A stretch of DNA of 13,451 nucleotides, taken from the IMG/VR virus record IMGVR_UViG_2698536313_000011; one strand, given 5' to 3'. Numbering within the stretch: position 1 is the first letter of the stretch; each line of letters begins with the position of its first letter. Positions 3,008-13,433 of this stretch are shown piece after piece. Origin of the DNA: a virus (taxonomy: Duplodnaviria > Heunggongvirae > Uroviricota > Caudoviricetes). The translations under genes and the position numbers were made by a program. Below the pieces are notes generated by a model that worked only from the letters and a program-made list of their open reading frames with translations, did no database searches and was not told the origin of the DNA.

Positions 3008-3447
3008 ACTTTGCCCTCAGACTGGCGCGTGAGATGGGGAGACCCGACTGGCGCGCCATGCTTGCCGGGATGACATCCACCGAATATGCCGACTGGCACC
3101 GTTTTTACCGCACGCATTATTTTCAGGATACCCAGCTGGATATGCATTTTTCCGGGCTGACGTACGCCGTACTCAGCCTGTTTTTTTGCGATCCGGATAT
3201 GCATCCCTCTGATTTCAGTCTGCTTGTCCCCCGGCATGAGGAAGAGCAGGTGGAGAGGCCGGATGAGGACAAAATGCTGATGCAGAAAGCGGCAGGACTT
3301 GCCGGAGGCGTCCGGTTCGGTGGGGACGGAGGGCGCGATATTTTATCGTCTGCGGATGTGGCGGATGTCATGGTGGATGATGCCGCATTAATGATGGCTT
3401 CAGCGGGGATTCCGGGAGGTGTGAGATATGTCCCAGCCGGTTGGTGA
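2576..3447 (+). CDS. T: Tail assembly chaperone G-T fusion made by programmed -1 ribosomal frameshift
   Basis: Slippery heptamer G GGA AAG at 2983-2989 sits in the G frame 6 codons before the G stop. The -1 frame is open from there to TGA 3445-3447 and encodes ..LNFALRLAREMGRPDWRAMLAGMTSTEYADWHRFY.., which matches lambda gpT. Frames were checked by hand: G is in frame 2, T in frame 1. Confidence 0.8.
2983..2989 (+). other. Programmed -1 frameshift slippery site GGGAAAG (G to G-T)
   Basis: Heptamer is seen directly in the sequence in the correct phase (G|GGA|AAG in the G frame). It is identical to the lambda G-T slip site known from the literature. Confidence 0.8.
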
Positions 3448-6001
3448 TCTTGTTATTGACCTGAGTCTGGATGCGGTCCGTTTCGATGAGCAGATGAGCC
3501 GGGTAAGGCGTCATTTTTCAGGACTGGAGACTGACGCCAGAAAAACCGCCGGTGTCGTTGAGCAGAACCTGAGTCGTCAGGCGCTGGCTGCACAAAAAGC
3601 CGGGATTTCCGTCGGGCAGTATAAAGCGGCCATGCGAACCCTGCCCGCACAGTTTACGGATATCGCCACGCAGCTTGCCGGTGGTCAGAATCCCTGGCTG
3701 ATCCTGCTGCAACAGGGCGGTCAGGTGAAGGACTCCTTCGGCGGGATGATCCCCATGTTCAGGGGACTTGCCGGTGCGATCACCCTGCCGATGGTCGGGG
3801 TCACCTCGCTGGCGGTGGCGACAGGTGCGCTTGCGTACGCCTGGTACCTGGGGGATTCCACGCTTTCAGCGTTTAATAAAACCCTGGTTCTTTCCGGTAA
3901 TCAGTCCGGACTGACTGCCGATCGCATGCTGACGCTCTCCAGAGCCGGACAGGCCGCAGGGCTGACGTTTAACCAGGCGAGAGAGTCACTGGCAGCCCTG
4001 GTGAATGCCGGTGTGCGTGGTGGTGAACAGTTTGATGCCATCAACCAGAGTGTCGCGCGTTTTGCTTCTGCATCCGGTGTGGAGGTGGACAAGGTTGCAG
4101 AGGCTTTCGGAAAACTGACCACCGACCCGACGTCGGGGCTGATTGCGATGGCGCGCCAGTTCCGTAACGTGACGGCAGAGCAGATTGCGTATGTTGCGCA
4201 GCTGCAGCGTTCCGGTGATGAGGCCGGGGCCTTACAGGCGGCGAACGATATCGCCACGAAAGGCTTTGATGAGCAGACCCGTCGCCTGAAAGAAAACATG
4301 GGGACACTGGAGACCTGGGCGGATAAAACAGGGAAGGCGTTCAAATCGATGTGGGATGCCATTCTGGATATCGGTCGTCCTGAGTCCTCAGCGGATATGC
4401 TCGCCAGTGCACAGAAGGCATTTGATGAGGCGGATAAAAAATGGCAGTGGTACCAGAGCCGGAGCCAGCGCCGGGGAAAAACCGCCTCTTTCCGGGCCAA
4501 CCTTCAGGGCGCATGGAATGACCGGGAAAATGCCCGTCTGGGGCTGGCAGCGGCCACGCTGCAGTCGGATATGGAAAAAGCCGGTGAACTGGCCGCCAGG
4601 GACCGGGCCGAACGGGACGCATCACAGCTGAAGTATACCGAAGAGGCGCAGAAGGCTTACGAACGGCTGCAGACGCCGCTGGAGAAATATACCGCCCGTC
4701 AGGAAGAACTGAACAAGGCACTGAAGGACGGGAAAATCCTGCAGGCGGATTACAACACGCTGATGGCGTCGGCAAAAAAGGATTATGAATCGACGCTGAA
4801 AAAGCCGTCAGGTGTGAAGGTGTCTGCCGGTGAGCGCCAGGAAGACCGGGCGCATGCAGCCATGCTGGCGCTTGAAACCGAGCTCAGGACGCTGGAAAAA
4901 CACAGCGGTGTGAATGAGAAAATCAGCCAGCAGCGCCGGGATTTATGGGAAGCGGAAAATCAGTATGTGGTCCTGAAAGAGGCCGCCACGAAACGGCAGT
5001 TATCTGAGCAGGAAAAATCCCTGCTGGCTCATGAGAAAGAGACGCTGGAGTACAAACGCCAGCTGGCTGAGCTGGGAGACAAGATTGAACACCAGAAGCG
5101 GCTGAATGAGCTGGCACAGCAGGCGGCGCGGTTTGAACAGCAGCAGAGCGCGAAGCAGGCGGCAATCAGCGCAAAAGCCCGCGGCCTCACTGACCGTCAG
5201 GCGCAGCGGGAGTCGGAAGAGCAGCGCCTTCGTGAGGTGTACGGTGATAATCCGGCTGCGCTGGCGAAGGCCACATCTGCACTGAAGAACACCTGGTCTG
5301 CGGAGGAGCAGCTTCGTGGAAGCTGGATGGCCGGGATGAAGTCCGGCTGGGGCGAGTGGGCGGAAAGTGCGACGGACAGTTTTTCGCAGGTTAAAAACGC
5401 GGCCACGCAGACCTTTGACGGTATTGCACAGAATATGGCGGCGATGCTGACCGGCAGCGAACAGAACTGGCGTGGTTTCACCCGTTCTGTGCTGTCCATG
5501 CTGACAGAGATTTTTCTGAAGCAGGCGATGGTGGGGATAGTCGGGAGTATCGGCAGCGCCATTGGCGGTGCTTTCGGTGGTGGTGCGTCTGCCTCCACGG
5601 GGACGGCCATTCAGGCTGCGGCGGCGAACTTCCATTTCGCGACCGGGGGATTTACGGGGACGGGGGGGAAATATGAACCTGCGGGGATTGTTCATCGCGG
5701 GGAGTTTGTCTTCACGAAGGAGGCGACCAGCCGGATTGGCGTGGGAAATCTTTACCGGCTGATGCGCGGCTATGCCACCGGCGGTTATGTCGGTGGCACC
5801 GGAAGTCCGGCGCAAATGCGGCGTTCAGAGGGTATCAGATTTGAGCAGAACAACAACGTGGTGATTCAGAACGACGGTACGAATGGTCTGCCAGGTCCAC
5901 AGATGCTGAAGGCAGTGTATGACATGGCCCGCAAGGGTGCCCGTGATGAAATTCAGGCACAGATGCGCGATGGTGGTCTGTTCTCCGGAGGTGGACGATG
6001 A
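3428..6001 (+). CDS. H: Tail tape measure protein H
   Basis: 857 aa (lambda gpH is 853). GGAGG ribosome-binding site. The N-terminus and long internal blocks (..KYTEEAQKAYERLQTPLEKYTARQEELNKALKDGKILQADYNTLMA.., C-terminal ..FHFATGGFTGTGGKYEPAGIVHRGEFVFTKEATSRIGVGNLYRLMRGYATGGYVG..) match lambda gpH as recalled. Start overlaps the G-T stop. Confidence 0.95.
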   Translation: MSQPVGDLVIDLSLDAVRFDEQMSRVRRHFSGLETDARKTAGVVEQNLSRQALAAQKAGISVGQYKAAMRTLPAQFTDIATQLAGGQNPWLILLQQGGQVKDSFGGMIPMFRGLAGAITLPMVGVTSLAVATGALAYAWYLGDSTLSAFNKTLVLSGNQSGLTADRMLTLSRAGQAAGLTFNQARESLAALVNAGVRGGEQFDAINQSVARFASASGVEVDKVAEAFGKLTTDPTSGLIAMARQFRNVTAEQIAYVAQLQRSGDEAGALQAANDIATKGFDEQTRRLKENMGTLETWADKTGKAFKSMWDAILDIGRPESSADMLASAQKAFDEADKKWQWYQSRSQRRGKTASFRANLQGAWNDRENARLGLAAATLQSDMEKAGELAARDRAERDASQLKYTEEAQKAYERLQTPLEKYTARQEELNKALKDGKILQADYNTLMASAKKDYESTLKKPSGVKVSAGERQEDRAHAAMLALETELRTLEKHSGVNEKISQQRRDLWEAENQYVVLKEAATKRQLSEQEKSLLAHEKETLEYKRQLAELGDKIEHQKRLNELAQQAARFEQQQSAKQAAISAKARGLTDRQAQRESEEQRLREVYGDNPAALAKATSALKNTWSAEEQLRGSWMAGMKSGWGEWAESATDSFSQVKNAATQTFDGIAQNMAAMLTGSEQNWRGFTRSVLSMLTEIFLKQAMVGIVGSIGSAIGGAFGGGASASTGTAIQAAAANFHFATGGFTGTGGKYEPAGIVHRGEFVFTKEATSRIGVGNLYRLMRGYATGGYVGGTGSPAQMRRSEGIRFEQNNNVVIQNDGTNGLPGPQMLKAVYDMARKGARDEIQAQMRDGGLFSGGGR

Positions 6002-7029: not shown

Positions 7030-7773
7030 ATGACAGAGACAGAATCAGCGATTCTGGCGCACGCCCGGCGATGTGCGCCAGCGGAGTCGTGCGGCTTCGT
7101 GGTGAGAGCGCCGGAGGGGGAAAGATATTTTCCCTGCGTGAATATTTCCGGTGAGCCGGAGGATTATTTCCGGATGGCTCCGGAGGACTGGCTGCAGGCA
7201 GAGATGCAGGGTGAGATTGTGGCACTGGTCCACAGTCATCCCGGTGGTCTGCCCTGGCTGAGTGAGGCTGACCGGCGGCTGCAGGTGCAGAGTGATTTGC
7301 CGTGGTGGCTGGTCTGCCGGGGGGCGATTCACAAGTTCCGCTGTGTGCCGCATCTCACCGGGCGGCGCTTTGAGCACGGGGTGACGGACTGTTACACGCT
7401 GTTCCGGGATGCTTATCATCTGGCGGGGATTGAGATGCCGGATTTTCATCGCGGGGATGACTGGTGGCGTCACGGTCAGAATCTCTATCTGGATAATCTG
7501 GAGGCCACAGGGCTGTATCAGGTGCCGTTGTCAGCGGCGCAGCCGGGCGATGTGCTGCTGTGCTGTTTTGGTTCATCGGTGCCGAATCATGCCGCCATTT
7601 ACTGTGGTGACAGCGAGCTGCTGCACCATATTCCTGAACAACTGAGCAAACGAGAGAGGTACACCGACAAATGGCAGCGACGCACACACTCCCTCTGGCG
7701 TCACCAGGCATGGCACGCATCTGCCTTTACGGGGATTTACAACGATTTGGTCGCCGCATCGACCTTCGTGTGA
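7030..7773 (+). CDS. K: Tail tip assembly protein K (MPN/JAMM plus NlpC/P60 domains)
   Basis: ORF from ATG 7030 (MTETESAILAHARRC..), 247 aa. JAMM motif HSHPGGLPWLSEAD (H-x-H-x7-S-x2-D) at nt 7231-7272. NlpC/P60-like Cys (..GVTDCYTLF..) and His (..VPNHAAIY..) downstream. The classical lambda 199-aa start corresponds to ATG 7174 here. The ORF track start at 6988 overlaps L and was not used. Confidence 0.85.
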   Translation: MTETESAILAHARRCAPAESCGFVVRAPEGERYFPCVNISGEPEDYFRMAPEDWLQAEMQGEIVALVHSHPGGLPWLSEADRRLQVQSDLPWWLVCRGAIHKFRCVPHLTGRRFEHGVTDCYTLFRDAYHLAGIEMPDFHRGDDWWRHGQNLYLDNLEATGLYQVPLSAAQPGDVLLCCFGSSVPNHAAIYCGDSELLHHIPEQLSKRERYTDKWQRRTHSLWRHQAWHASAFTGIYNDLVAASTFV

Positions 7774-8312
7774 AAACGGGGGCCGAAGCCATCCGGGCGC
7801 TGGCCACACAGCTCCCGGCGTTTCGCCAGAAACTGAATGAGGGCTGGTATCAGGTGCGCATTGCCGGGCGTGATGCAGGCGAAAACGAATTATCTGCCCG
7901 TCTTAATGAGCCGCTGGCAAATGGTGCCGTGATCCACATCGTACCGCGTCTGGCGGGTGCCAAAAGTGGTGGTGTTTTTCAGGCAGTGCTGGGTGCGGCG
8001 CTGATTGCTACGGCAATCTGGATGCCAGGAATCAGTATCGCTTTCAGTAACATTCTCTTTTCTATGGGGGCAGCGATGACGCTTGGTGGTGTCGCACAGA
8101 TGCTGGCCCCTAAACCCAAAACTCCACGTACACAGACAACGGATAACGGCAAACAGAACACCTATTTCTCCTCACTGGATAACATGGTTGCCCAGGGCAA
8201 TGTCCTGCCTGTTCTGTACGGTGAAATGCGCGTGGGGTCACGTGTGGCATCTCAGGAGATCAGCACGGCAGATGAAGGGGATGGTGGTCAGGTTGTGGTA
8301 ATTGGGCGGTAA
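7671..8312 (+). CDS. I: Tail tip assembly protein I
   Basis: 213 aa (lambda gpI is 223). Overlaps the 3' end of K by 103 nt in a different frame, exactly the K/I overlap length in lambda. Hydrophobic central segment (..AVLGAALIATAIWMPGISIAFSNILFSMGAAMTLGGVAQMLAP..). Confidence 0.85.
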   Translation: MAATHTLPLASPGMARICLYGDLQRFGRRIDLRVKTGAEAIRALATQLPAFRQKLNEGWYQVRIAGRDAGENELSARLNEPLANGAVIHIVPRLAGAKSGGVFQAVLGAALIATAIWMPGISIAFSNILFSMGAAMTLGGVAQMLAPKPKTPRTQTTDNGKQNTYFSSLDNMVAQGNVLPVLYGEMRVGSRVASQEISTADEGDGGQVVVIGR

Positions 8313-8384
8313 TATTATTTACTCATGTTCTAACTGATTTAATATTTATATCGAACACTGATAATTATTCTATTGGTTAGCTAT

Positions 8385-8723
8385 ATGAACAAAACGATTT
8401 TATTCTGCACGATTATTGCCTTAACAGGATGTAAATCTTTGGATTACGTAAAATCCGGAAAACCTGTAATGGAAGGTAATTCATTAAAAAATATTGATGA
8501 ATTGTCAGGCTGCATATCCAGACAATGGGCTGGTAATGGAACACCTATAACATCCCTTCCTATTGAGAATGAGGTAAGCCTTTTAGTTCCACAGGCTATG
8601 GGGGGATATGATGTTGTGCTTGATATCAAAAAAGCAGGAAATGGCAGTAGTTTTACTCTTTATGAACGTGTACCAGCATTAACGCCAAAAATTTTTGCTG
8701 ATAGTGTTAATGCATGTAAATAA
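8385..8723 (+). CDS. Putative secreted lipoprotein of unknown function (moron inserted between I and J)
   Basis: 112-aa ORF from ATG 8385. N-terminus MNKTILFCTIIALTGC has a hydrophobic signal core plus lipobox L-T-G-C. Residue after the Cys is Lys, not Asp, which suggests outer-membrane sorting. Sits in an AT-rich island between GC-rich I and J. Lambda has only about 60 bp between I and J; here the gap is 477 bp. No obvious SD. I do not recognise the protein. Confidence 0.6.
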   Translation: MNKTILFCTIIALTGCKSLDYVKSGKPVMEGNSLKNIDELSGCISRQWAGNGTPITSLPIENEVSLLVPQAMGGYDVVLDIKKAGNGSSFTLYERVPALTPKIFADSVNACK

Positions 8724-8747
8724 TAGTTAATCCTGCCGTAACTCATG

Positions 8748-8775
8748 AGCCGCCTTTTGGGCGGCTTTGTTGTTT
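8748..8775 (+). terminator. Putative rho-independent terminator downstream of the lipoprotein gene
   Basis: Inverted repeat AGCCGCC (8748-8754) / GGCGGCT (8760-8766) with a 5-nt loop, followed by the T-rich run TTGTTGTTT (8767-8775). Confidence 0.5.
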
Positions 8776-8789
8776 ATGGAGTGTGAGGA

Positions 8790-10445
<1,656 letters not shown>

Positions 10446-10463
<18 letters not shown>

Positions 10464-10765
10464 AGGACCGCCATAATGCCGTTGAGGTGAACTGGATTGA
10501 CCCGGATAACGGCTGGGAGACGGCGACAGAGCTTGTTGAAGATACGCAGGCCATTGCCCGTTACGGTCGTAACGTCACGAAGATGGATGCCTTTGGCTGT
10601 ACCAGCCGGGGGCAGGCACACCGCGCCGGGCTGTGGCTGATTAAAACGGAGCTGCTGGAAACGCAGACCGTGGACTTCAGCGTGGGTGCCGAAGGGCTTC
10701 GCCATGTACCGGGCGATGTCATTGAAATCTGTGATGATGACTATGCCGGTATCAGCATCGGCGGG
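10446..10765 (+). repeat. Direct repeat copy 2 (320 bp of J coding sequence)
   Basis: See copy 1. Copy 2 continues seamlessly into the downstream J sequence (..[21 protein letters not shown]..). Confidence 0.9.
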
Positions 10766-12766
10766 CGCGTGCTGGCGGTGAACAGCCAGACGCGGACACT
10801 GACGCTCGACCGTGAAATCACGCTGCCATCCTCCGGCACCACGCTGATAAGCCTGGTTGACGGACAGGGGAATCCGGTCAGCGTGGAGGTCCAGTCCGTC
10901 ACCGACGGCGTGAAGGTGAAAGTGAGCCGTGTTCCTGACGGCGTTGCCGAATACAGCGTGTGGGGGCTGAAGCTGCCGACGCTGCGCCAGCGCCTGTTCC
11001 GCTGCGTGAGTATCCGTGAGAACGATGGCGGCACGTATGCCATCACCGCCGTGCAGCATGTACCGGAAAAAGAAGCCATCGTGGATAACGGGGCGCACTT
11101 TGACGGCGACCAGAGCGGCACGGTGAATGGTGTCACGCCGCCAGCGGTGCAGCACCTGACTGCCGAAGTCACCGCAGACAGCGGGGAGTATCAGGTACTG
11201 GCCCGCTGGGACACGCCGAAGGTGGTGAAGGGCGTGAGCTTCCTGCTTCGCCTGACCGTGACAGCGGACGATGGCAGTGAGCGGCTGGTCAGCACGGCCC
11301 GGACGACGGAAACCACATACCGCTTCAGGCAGCTGGCGCTGGGGCGTTACATGTTGACGGTCCGGGCGGTAAATGCGTGGGGACAGCTGGGCGATCCGGC
11401 GTCGGTATCGTTCCGGATTGCCGCACCGGCAGCGCCGTCGCGGATTGAGCTGACGCCGGGCTATTTTCAGATAACCGCCACGCCGCATCTTGCCGTTTAT
11501 GACCCGACGGTACAGTTTGAGTTCTGGTTTTCGGAAAAGCGGATTACCGATATCAGGAAGGTTGAAACCACAGCGCGCTATCTTGGCACGGGGCTGTACT
11601 GGATAGCCGCCAGTATCAATATCAAACCGGGCCATGATTATTATTTTTACGTTCGCAGTGTGAACACCGTTGGCAAATCGGCATTCGTGGAGGCTGTTGG
11701 TCAGCCGAGTGATGATGCATCCGGTTATCTGGATTTTTTCAAAGGCGAGATAGGGAAAACCCATCTGGCTCAGGAGCTGTGGACGCAGATTGATAACGGT
11801 CAGCTTGCGCCTGACCTGGCTGAAATCAGGACGTCCATTAAGGATGTCAGCAATGAAATCACGCAGACCGTCAATAAGAAACTGGAAGACCAGAGTGCGG
11901 CAATTCAGCAGATACAGAAGGTTCAGGTTGATACAAATAATAATCTGAACAGCATGTGGGCTGTGAAGCTGCAACAGATGAAGGACGGACGCCTTTATAT
12001 TGCGGGTATCGGTGCCGGTATTGAGAATACGCCAGCAGGAATGCAGAGTCAGGTGCTGCTGGCGGCAGACAGGATTGCGATGATTAATCCTGCGAATGGC
12101 AACACAAAGCCGATGTTTGTTGGTCAGGGCGATCAGATATTCATGAACGACGTGTTCCTGAAACGCCTGACGGCTCCCACCATTACCAGCGGCGGTAATC
12201 CTCCGGCATTTTCCCTGACACCGGACGGGCGGCTGACGGCGAAAAATGCCGATATTAGCGGTAACGTGAATGCGAACTCCGGGACGCTCAACAACGTCAC
12301 GATTAACGAGAACTGTCGGGTTCTGGGAAAACTGTCCGCCAACCAGATTGAAGGCGATCTCGTTAAAACAGTGGGCAAAGCTTTCCCCCGGGACTCCCGT
12401 GCACCGGAGCGGTGGCCATCAGGGACCATTACCGTCAGGGTTTATGACGATCAGCCGTTTGACCGGCAGATTGTTATTCCGGCGGTGGCATTCAGTGGCG
12501 CTAAGCATGAGAGAGAGCATACTGATATTTACTCCTCATGCCGTCTGATAGTGCGGAAAAACGGTGCTGAAATTTATAACCGTACCGCGCTGGATAATAC
12601 GCTGATTTACAGTGGCGTTATTGATATGCCTGCCGGTCACGGTCACATGACGCTGGAGTTTTCGGTATCAGCATGGCTGGTGAATAACTGGTATCCCACA
12701 GCAAGTATCAGCGATTTGCTGGTTGTGGTGATGAAGAAAGCCACCGCAGGCATCAGTATCAGCTGA
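10487..12766 (+). CDS. J: Host specificity protein J, C-terminal portion (includes receptor-binding region)
   Basis: As-written ORF starts at GTG 10487 (759 aa). J-homologous sequence in this frame begins at about 10448 inside repeat copy 2. Long blocks match lambda gpJ (..[44 protein letters not shown].., ..[30 protein letters not shown]..). Removing 497 bp (one repeat copy plus the G-tract) restores a single J ORF of about 1159 aa. Confidence 0.85.
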
Positions 12767-12833: not shown

Positions 12834-13433
12834 ATGCGTAAATTATGTGCTGTTATTCTGTCCGCAGTAGTCTGGCTGGTTGCCGCTGGTACGCCAGCGA
12901 GCGCAGCAGAGCATCAGTCCACACTAAGCGCCGGGTATCTTCAGACCCATACTGATATGCCAGGCAGCGATGACCTGAAGGGCATTAACGTGAAATACCG
13001 TTATGAATTTACGGACACGCTGGGGCTGGTGACGTCATTCAGCTATGCAGGAGACAGGAATCGCCAGCTTACCCGTTACAGCGATACCCGCTGGCATGAA
13101 GATTCCGTTCGTAACCGCTGGTTCAGCGTAATGGCGGGGCCGTCTGTGCGCGTGAATGAATGGTTCAGCGCGTATGCGATGGCGGGCGTGGCTTACAGCC
13201 GTGTGTCGACTTTCTCCGGGGATTATCTCCGCGTAACTGACAACAAGGGGAAAACGCACGACGTGCTGACCGGAAGTGATGACGGTCGCCACAGCAACAC
13301 GTCTCTGGCGTGGGGGGCTGGCGTGCAGTTTAACCCGACCGAATCCGTGGCCATTGATATTGCTTATGAAGGTTCCGGCAGTGGTGACTGGCGCACTGAC
13401 GGCTTCATCGTGGGTGTCGGCTATAAATTCTGA
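12834..13433 (+). CDS. lom: Outer membrane protein Lom (Ail/Lom/OmpX family beta-barrel)
   Basis: 199 aa (lambda Lom is 206). Signal peptide [26 protein letters not shown]. Internal ..[11 protein letters not shown].. and C-terminal ..[24 protein letters not shown] match lambda Lom as recalled, ending in the beta-barrel terminal aromatic residue. GAGAGG ribosome-binding site at 12824-12829. Position immediately after J. Confidence 0.9.

Follow-up and report, generated by a model that had tools for sequence, protein, structure and literature searches.

Why does the tail operon of a lambda-like prophage hold 477 bp of AT-rich DNA between genes I and J, and what does the gene within this DNA do? 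We considered these questions for the window, the whole 13,451-nucleotide (nt) stretch of IMG/VR virus record IMGVR_UViG_2698536313_000011, which covers the head-tail and tail genes of a lambda-like Escherichia coli prophage. Comparison with other prophages showed that an accessory gene cassette of ~431 bp sits inserted in the short I-J spacer of the tail operon. Its gene encodes a predicted lipoprotein of 112 amino acids (aa), and database searches showed that lipoproteins of ~110 aa like this one form a family that is widespread in proteobacteria and absent from Pfam. The E. coli copy adds a member at a new junction to a family of tail-operon lipoproteins that had been noticed before and is uncharacterised; it does not represent a new kind of element. 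As for its function, which is predicted only, our best guess is that the protein excludes superinfecting phages at the level of the envelope, and we hold this reading tentatively.

A gene cassette inserted between I and J

A 601-nt stretch around the insert is 100% identical to the chromosome of E. coli strain TB354 (locus L001), where RefSeq gives the gene order FI, U, V, G, T, tape measure, M, L, K, I, J, Lom. In the window, the last position of I is 8312 and the first of J is 8790, leaving a spacer of 477 bp (8313-8789). The corresponding spacer is 60 bp long in the lambda-type prophage of a K-12 strain and at other empty sites. When the window was aligned with three empty sites, homology ended directly after the stop codon of I and picked up again at ~8744, such that ~431 bp stand in place of the ~15 nt (GCARAATGTTTTATG) of empty spacers. 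The locus comprises the following features:

8313-8743, plus strand: AT-rich inserted segment of ~431 bp, delimited by alignment with three empty sites; GC content 0.339
8313-8384, plus strand: upstream untranslated stretch of 72 nt; GC content 0.22, with weak promoter-like hexamers found by eye
8385-8723, plus strand: lipoprotein gene, 112 aa and stop codon, supported by its translation, a full-length match to PHROG 914 (E = 1.3e-30), homologues and an AlphaFold2 model
8747-8767, plus strand: GC-rich hairpin with T-rich tail ahead of J; 9-pair stem with 6 GC pairs, minimum free energy -22.6 kcal/mol, z -2.6
7671-8312, plus strand: tail assembly gene I, the left flank, named 'tail assembly protein' by RefSeq in the identical locus L001; GC content 0.562
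8790-12766, plus strand: tail tip/host-specificity gene J, the right flank, gpJ in L001; interrupted in the window by what looks like an assembly artefact

The insert differs sharply in composition from the genes around it. Its GC content of 0.339 over 8313-8743 falls to 0.222 in the 72 nt 5' of the open reading frame (ORF) and is 0.36 in the ORF itself (0.24 at third codon positions, GC3), against 0.562 (GC3 0.55) in gene I and 0.578 in J. The original prediction had set a 477-bp spacer against about 60 bp in lambda and had noted an AT-rich break between GC-rich flanks; the empty sites bore out the former and the measured values (0.339 versus 0.56-0.58) the latter.

We quantified the distribution of the insert with a junction query consisting of the last 300 nt of I and the first 300 nt of J, requiring a match over at least 80% of the query length. 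The junction was matched in 4160 of 5426 complete E. coli genomes, mostly with a spacer of ~60 bp among the sampled matches, and the long form carrying the insert was found in 334 of the 5426. Copies of the insert in E. coli have a median nucleotide identity of 99.1%, as compared to 95.7% for the adjacent 300 nt of I and 97.3% for those of J, a uniformity above that of the flanks that would fit recent horizontal spread by recombination. Because of the empty-site comparison, the GC break, the greater uniformity of the insert and the occurrence of homologues at three tail-operon junctions (described below), the view that this is horizontally acquired accessory DNA, likewise part of the original prediction, is supported.

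Two further ideas about the spacer were rejected. MAFFT hinted at a GAACACTG..TAAT motif shared with Kluyvera, as though the 72-nt leader were a leftover of the 3' end of a donor K gene; local alignments of the leader to seven K or T 3' ends spanned only 10-27 nt, which is the chance level, and the K-remnant reading was dropped. An RNA element was dismissed because no Rfam family matched the spacer at its gathering score. The sole sub-threshold match was GcvB, at 19.5 bits versus the required 42, and the hairpin probably drives it.

The encoded protein

Translation of 8385-8723 gives 112 aa beginning with MNKTILFCTIIALTGC, followed by KSLD. The N-terminus has a positive n-region (MNK), a hydrophobic h-region (TILFCTIIA) and a lipobox (LTGC) of the form [LVI][ASTVI][GAS]C. 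Residues L13-T14-G15-C16 of the lipobox lie at 8421-8432, the codon of the lipidated Cys16 at 8430-8432, and the residue at +2 is Lys17. The original prediction of a 112-aa ORF with this lipobox and Lys at +2 was therefore upheld by both the translation and conservation in the family. Within the gene, four positions matter to the argument:

8385-8432, plus strand: signal peptide (residues 1-15), lipobox and Cys16, a pattern kept in nearly all family members
8469-8471, plus strand: codon of Met29, the RefSeq/PGAP start in the identical locus, where the coding sequence at 9220-9474 of L001 equals window positions 8469-8723
8511-8513, plus strand: codon of Cys43, which is invariant and probably forms a disulfide with Cys111 (8715-8717)
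8571-8573, plus strand: codon of Glu63, at a position where the family has a near-invariant Gly

The RefSeq/PGAP version in L001 is an 84-aa 'hypothetical protein' (WP_497754817.1) without signal peptide or lipobox. Since the N-terminal 28 residues are conserved among homologues of 50% overall identity, the 112-aa long form is the correct version. One database cluster of 85-aa forms tagged 'partial' (P0003) has 134 member sequences.

Lipoproteins without Asp at +2 lack the Lol avoidance signal and are sorted to the outer membrane. Lys occupies +2 in all close homologues, and Asp was found there in none of the members listed. Because the lipobox is family-wide and Asp is absent from +2, the mature protein should by this rule go to the outer membrane, which lends support to the localisation originally proposed from Lys17 alone.

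Selection on the gene can be gauged from 36 intact E. coli copies, among which 11 variable codons are synonymous and 6 are non-synonymous. This excess of synonymous changes indicates that the gene is under purifying selection. At position 63, in a turn between strands, Gly is found in 34 of the 36 other intact E. coli copies and in at least 90% of the family, and the window allele has Glu. The Glu63 allele is common to the window, TB354, and the loci L010 and L011. It may be a weakened variant, and is an allelic deviation that gives no argument against family membership.

A family of lipoproteins at tail-operon junctions

The window protein matched PHROG 914, a family of unknown function, with residues 1-112 aligned to positions 1-118 of the 118-position profile. 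A search of 5.8 billion proteins returned full-length homologues with 47-61% identity in Jejubacter, Kluyvera, Klebsiella and Enterobacter. In the alignment of close homologues, G15-C16-K17-S18-L19-D20, C43, the motif MGGYDVVLD and C111 are invariant. More distant relatives are Gp19 of phage phiKO2 (25% identity over residues 1-89, BLASTP E = 2e-6) and a homologue in phage Fraca (tblastn E = 5e-4). With a profile search of 1.84 billion representatives we obtained 119 clusters at E < 1e-3, nearly all of which are 105-125 aa long and have three Cys and a lipobox. When 112 members were aligned, C16 and C43 proved invariant, and G63 and C111 at least 90% conserved.

Established domain collections had no place for these proteins. 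The window protein matched no Pfam family at E up to 10, and comparison with NCBIfam and PADLOC gave only a signal-peptide-level match to VirB7 (E = 0.08). No specific Pfam domain was found among the 112 members, for which a few single-member matches were marginal (best E = 0.005) or represented the generic lipid-attachment signal, and the family profile matched no solved structure in the PDB by sequence. Three long proteins (782-1090 aa) with 5-6 stretches matching the profile were considered as multi-domain relatives and rejected as spurious matches to low-complexity repeat proteins. The original prediction had held that the family could not be identified from sequence alone. An identification proved possible, as PHROG 914/phiKO2 Gp19. 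GenBank already annotates Gp19 as 'putative moron gene product; similar to Xanthomonas gene XCC2962' and places a putative terminator after the gene.

Homologues were found at three junctions of siphovirus tail operons (T-H, K-I and I-J), always co-oriented with the tail genes. The I-J junction is the one used in E. coli, and K-I is used in Klebsiella, Kluyvera, phages Fraca, LMessi and phiKO2, and Serratia phage OS31. In HK97-like Enterobacter prophages the gene lies between the tail chaperone gene T and the tape measure gene. Such a spread across three junctions is typical of mobile accessory cargo and shows repeated capture of family members by temperate siphoviruses. All carriers with inspected genomes are temperate. 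Fraca has genes for an integrase, an excisionase, a repressor and Q, and also cor in addition to its lipoprotein homologue; phiKO2 is a plasmid prophage.

The lipoprotein also appears to be independent of the receptor-binding end of J. Lipoproteins of 98-100% identity occur beside J proteins whose C-terminal 250 aa are ~100, 93, 70 or 55% identical to those of the window, and some J ends were unmatched. Hence, a near-invariant lipoprotein accompanies at least three J receptor-binding types.

Distant members reside in a phage replication module, in a genomic island, and at chromosomal sites next to an ECF (extracytoplasmic function) sigma gene or an OmpA-family gene. From this distribution, the family is one of host lipoproteins that phages have captured. 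We also considered the genes next to distant members as a clue to function and discarded it, as there was no consistent partner. One distant member (P0139, at 7001-7810 of L081) is paired with a 153-aa ORF of unknown function. The two make up a divergently oriented unit that lies in a replication module of phage-like type, together with DNA polymerase A, an SNF2 helicase and a PD-(D/E)XK nuclease. In a single IMG/VR prophage (L069, 3063-7000), the junction between K and the lipoprotein gene carries 4 kb of further cargo encoding an Arc-like repressor, a Bro-N protein, a KilA-N protein and a helix-turn-helix regulator, which suggests that accessory DNA in general can dock at the K-I junction.

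The hairpin ahead of J

A terminator of the gene's own was part of the original prediction. There is a hairpin with a T-rich tail at 8747-8767, and it may terminate the transcript of the lipoprotein gene. However, prophages that lack the insert have it too: in 120 of 120 sampled empty I-J spacers, a homologue of this hairpin lies at the same place, with the sequence AAACCGCC-TGCG/TCCG-GGCGGTTT. Loci bearing the insert have a distinct allele, GAGCCGCC-TTT-GGCGGCTT, in 59 of 59 cases, which differs by a compensatory pair. phiKO2 likewise has a hairpin between its I and J homologues, and hairpins ahead of J were located at 6005-6024 of L086 and in the 120 loci from L096 onward. Since a hairpin and T run precede J in every lambda-type spacer sampled and in phiKO2, we regard it as a putative terminator-like or RNA-stability element conserved inside the late tail operon. 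Given its homologues in all 120 sampled empty spacers, the hairpin at 8747-8767 is not evidence of a self-contained cassette. At the other junctions, each homologue of the lipoprotein gene has a GC hairpin and T run of its own after it, and the stems of these hairpins are unrelated in sequence.

Signals upstream of the gene are faint. By eye, the leader contains hexamers matching at only 8 of 12 positions (TTTACT at 8318-8323 and TAATAT at 8340-8345, separated by 16 nt), as well as GATAAT at 8360-8365 and a weak Shine-Dalgarno sequence, GGT, at 8376-8378. Phylogenetic footprinting had no power here, as the leader is nearly invariant among E. coli copies.

Predicted fold

AlphaFold2, given a 12-sequence alignment, modelled the protein as a signal peptide and a short helix followed by a beta-alpha-beta4-alpha domain (predicted local distance difference test score 83, predicted template modelling score 0.74). 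The best structural match in the PDB was the Francisella lipoprotein Flpp3, and T5 Llp was not among the structural matches listed. The best viral match was an uncharacterised protein of Pseudomonas phage phiAH14a, with template modelling scores of 0.71/0.84 and 24% identity.

Possible functions

The favoured reading, exclusion of superinfecting phages, can be laid out as a sequence of conditional steps. A weak promoter in the AT-rich leader would drive production of the lipoprotein in the lysogen, or the late transcript at least would provide for it. From its sequence and standard lipoprotein biology, the precursor would be exported, lipidated at Cys16 and cleaved by signal peptidase II, and the Lol pathway would sort the product to the outer membrane, its +2 residue being Lys and not Asp. 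A 97-residue alpha+beta domain, probably with the Cys43-Cys111 disulfide, would then hang from the lipid anchor and, at the envelope, exclude superinfecting phages. Its target may be some conserved part of the tail tips or tape measures that incoming lambda-like phages bring into the periplasm, or else a factor of the host envelope that DNA entry requires.

A predicted outer-membrane lipoprotein would be in the right compartment for exclusion, and there are precedents for genes of this kind. HK97 gp15, the product of a tail-operon moron, is a superinfection-exclusion protein (PMC3594210). The unrelated lipoproteins Lpp021 and Lpp010, encoded in the structural gene cluster of mEpimmI temperate coliphages, were expressed from a plasmid and excluded phages that depend on OmpA or LamB (PMC11893012). 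The original prediction had named Cor and Llp as models, which holds as an analogy only: there is no homology past the signal peptide. We disfavour the simple idea that the phage masks its own receptor because of this lack of homology, the several J C-terminal types, and the joint presence of both genes in Fraca. We lean instead toward a target other than the phage's own receptor, since the lipoprotein is near-invariant while the J end varies and Fraca has cor too.

Several observations weigh against exclusion. The protein has no homology to the known exclusion lipoproteins Cor, T5 Llp and Lpp021, nor a PADLOC match. We found no experiment on the PHROG 914/Gp19 family in the literature, and literature on XCC2962 and on tail-operon lipoprotein morons yielded nothing about it. 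Among E. coli copies, L066, L067, L068, P0002 and P0018 are frameshifted, so these are pseudogenes or sequencing errors, and the window allele itself has Glu at the near-invariant Gly63. Distant members are ordinary chromosomal genes in Xanthomonadales-type genomes, for which reason the ancestral function was not phage-related. Expression from the lysogen is in doubt as well. No plus-strand sigma-70 match of at least 9/12 was detected upstream of the gene in the window, in the Klebsiella and Enterobacter loci (L003, L007) or in phiKO2; with this and the resident-type hairpin, the insert is at most a putative self-contained unit. At loci where the gene lies between K and I, only ~32 nt separate it from K, because of which its expression there may be purely late; late co-transcription would be at least as likely as lysogen expression at these loci.

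Other roles fit parts of the same evidence. The protein may serve as a conversion factor for host fitness or virulence, giving the lysogen serum or complement resistance, stress tolerance or adhesion, as with lambda Bor and Lom, and having no anti-phage role. We judge this rather unlikely. Lambdoid tail regions are known homes of such genes, the window also has an Ail/Lom-family gene (12834-13433), and the lipoprotein does not follow the receptor-binding type of J. Many listed carrier strains are human E. coli isolates, and the best structural match, Flpp3, has a PDB entry entitled 'F. tularensis Virulence Determinant', but this likeness is at the fold level only (6% identity). The protein has no Pfam match at E up to 10, and hence none to the Bor/Iss family. 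Moreover, a niche-specific virulence role is argued against by the fact that the gene always lies in tail modules, carried by phages and hosts from varied sources (wastewater-type phages, Klebsiella, Enterobacter, a Serratia phage from a mine). It is unlikely, in our estimate, that the protein is a late-expressed helper of the phage's own lytic cycle, co-transcribed with the tail genes. Such a helper might mask receptors or envelope debris and thereby save progeny from loss, which is what T5 Llp does in its second role, or it might alter the envelope when the cell lyses. The gene is dispensable, as most related prophages do not have the insert (334 carriers versus 4160 genomes with the I-J junction), all inspected carriers are temperate, and the missing linkage to J receptor-binding type argues against receptor masking. 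What speaks for such a helper is the constant, co-oriented position within the late tail operon, the very short upstream spacers and good Shine-Dalgarno sequences of loci with the gene between K and I, the undetected promoter, and the hairpin after the gene in every arrangement, which would be read through under Q antitermination.

The gene could also be near-neutral cargo, a captured chromosomal lipoprotein gene that hitch-hikes through tail-module recombination and does nothing specific for phage or lysogen. In its favour, other Proteobacteria have the family on their chromosomes, frameshifted copies occur, and the window allele is changed at the conserved Gly63. We nonetheless consider neutrality very doubtful in view of the 11:6 synonymous excess among variable codons (a non-synonymous to synonymous rate ratio, dN/dS, of roughly 0.2 as a rough estimate) and because genes at three independent junctions and in different genera, at 50% identity, have all kept the full-length ORF, the lipobox and the Cys pair. 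That the ORF is not a gene, but a chance frame in AT-rich filler or what is left of a larger gene after decay, is effectively refuted. RefSeq has only the truncated 84-aa hypothetical protein in the identical locus; yet the PHROG match spans the full length, 119 clusters of the same length conserve the lipobox and cysteines, and the AlphaFold2 fold is confident. Homologues are full length and of about the same size, and no larger parent gene was found, which disposes of the degraded remnant that the original prediction had named as its own refutation.

Exclusion at the envelope is accordingly the reading that we carry forward, as a guess. A bolder form of it, which we regard as a long shot, is that PHROG 914/Gp19 lipoproteins constitute a new and widespread class of Gram-negative exclusion proteins that are anchored in the outer membrane, act in the periplasm on one of the candidate targets named above and block DNA entry independently of the receptor, as a counterpart of the Ltp lipoprotein discussed below. 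A receptor-independent block would explain why the gene travels in tail-tip modules at three junctions and stays invariant while J ends change.

Other features of the window

The interruption of J coincides with a 180-nt run of G at 10266-10445, in which a C recurs at intervals of about 11 nt. On either side of the run lies a copy of the same 314 nt of J (9950-10263 and 10447-10760), with one mismatch between the copies. J is thereby split into ORFs at 8790-10463 and 10487-12766, whereas J is intact in the RefSeq locus, at 3480 nt. Since this otherwise identical locus has an intact J, the poly-G join looks like a sequencing or assembly artefact and not biology, and the lipoprotein finding is unaffected. 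The tape-measure gene presents the reverse case, being flagged as frameshifted in L001 (4180-6752) and intact in the window (857 aa, 3428-6001). Downstream of J, as in lambda, the gene at 12834-13433 encodes a 199-aa outer-membrane beta-barrel protein of the Ail/Lom family, which varies more among related loci (83-100% identity) than the lipoprotein does.

Significance

This gene is present in about 6% of complete E. coli genomes (334 of 5426), and relatives occur in Klebsiella, Enterobacter, Kluyvera and Serratia phages, within a family that has no Pfam entry, solved structure or known function. RefSeq often starts the gene at the internal Met (84 aa), and this choice hides the signal peptide and with it the lipoprotein nature of the product. 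The tail-operon junctions T-H, K-I and I-J act as interchangeable docking sites for the same cargo gene. If the protein does exclude phages, it would represent a cheap and portable envelope defence, of consequence in Enterobacteriaceae for the host range of therapeutic phages, and for competition among prophages. Should it be a fitness factor instead, there would be one more lysogenic-conversion lipoprotein. A lipoprotein gene in a lambdoid tail region would not surprise a specialist, but the family is common, unannotated and easy to test.

Comparison with known systems

Morons are defined, after Juhala and Hendrix, as extra DNA between genes that are adjacent in relatives, with deviant GC content, a promoter and terminator of their own, and expression from the repressed prophage (PMC3594210). 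In the insert we find the extra DNA between adjacent genes (477 versus 60 bp) and the deviant GC content (0.339 versus 0.56-0.58). The first moron described was the HK97 gene 15 element, whose product gp15 excludes superinfecting phages at DNA entry (Cumby et al. 2012; PMC3594210). Like the window gene, it is an extra tail-operon gene of a temperate lambdoid siphovirus, and its slot between the tail chaperone and the tape measure is the very position of the Enterobacter homologues of our lipoprotein. In contrast, gp15 is a YebO-like protein of the inner membrane and not a lipoprotein. The window protein matched neither YebO nor another Pfam family, although no pairwise comparison with gp15 was made.

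Lambda Bor, of the Bor/Iss family, is another lipoprotein of lambdoid prophages, expressed in lysogens as a conversion factor from a gene that differs in position, lying near the lysis genes. It is cited as a lysogenic conversion lipoprotein in PMC3594210. The absence of a Pfam match at E up to 10 indicates that Bor/Iss has no sequence relationship to the window protein. Francisella Flpp3 (DUF3568; PDB 6pny / 9nlt / 2mu4) shares 6-9% identity with it and there was no Pfam match to DUF3568. The resemblance is one of generic fold only, because unrelated DUF302, KA1 and BamC-N domains gave comparable scores. Bor/Iss, gp15/YebO and DUF3568 were also absent from the Pfam matches of the 112 family members.

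T5 Llp, Cor of phi80/N15/HK022, and Lpp021/Lpp010 are phage lipoproteins encoded in or next to tail and receptor-binding genes that exclude phages when expressed alone (PMC11893012), and are in these respects similar to the window protein. They differ in being smaller, with 72 aa for the Lpp021 precursor, 77 aa for Fraca Cor and 83 residues for the Llp chain (8a60_B), versus 112 aa here. They are also matched to the phage's own receptor, unlike the window lipoprotein, which is invariant across at least three J C-terminal types and coexists with cor in Fraca. Alignment of the family profile by hhalign gave a probability of 2.6% with Fraca Cor, in the signal peptide region only, and of 19.7% with Lpp021 (the Lpp of mEp021), over residues 1-18 only, Lpp010 not being compared. 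With T5 Llp (8a60_B), the profile touched only residues 1-20. Comparison of the C-terminal 250 aa of J showed no co-variation of the lipoprotein with the J receptor-binding domain.

For a receptor-independent mechanism, our working analogy is the Ltp lipoprotein of Streptococcus phage TP-J34, which targets the tape measure. Ltp is described as a prophage lipoprotein that blocks DNA injection and not adsorption (PMC3952083). Ltp differs in its Gram-positive setting and in its unrelated sequence and fold, and homology to the window protein is not expected.

Among the systems compared, Gp19 of phiKO2 is of the same PHROG 914 family as the window protein, with the same size, lipobox and conserved Cys, and is likewise encoded by an extra gene in a lambda-like tail operon that is followed by a hairpin. 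The two proteins share 25% identity, and their genes differ in location, with Gp19 encoded between K and I and the window copy between I and J.

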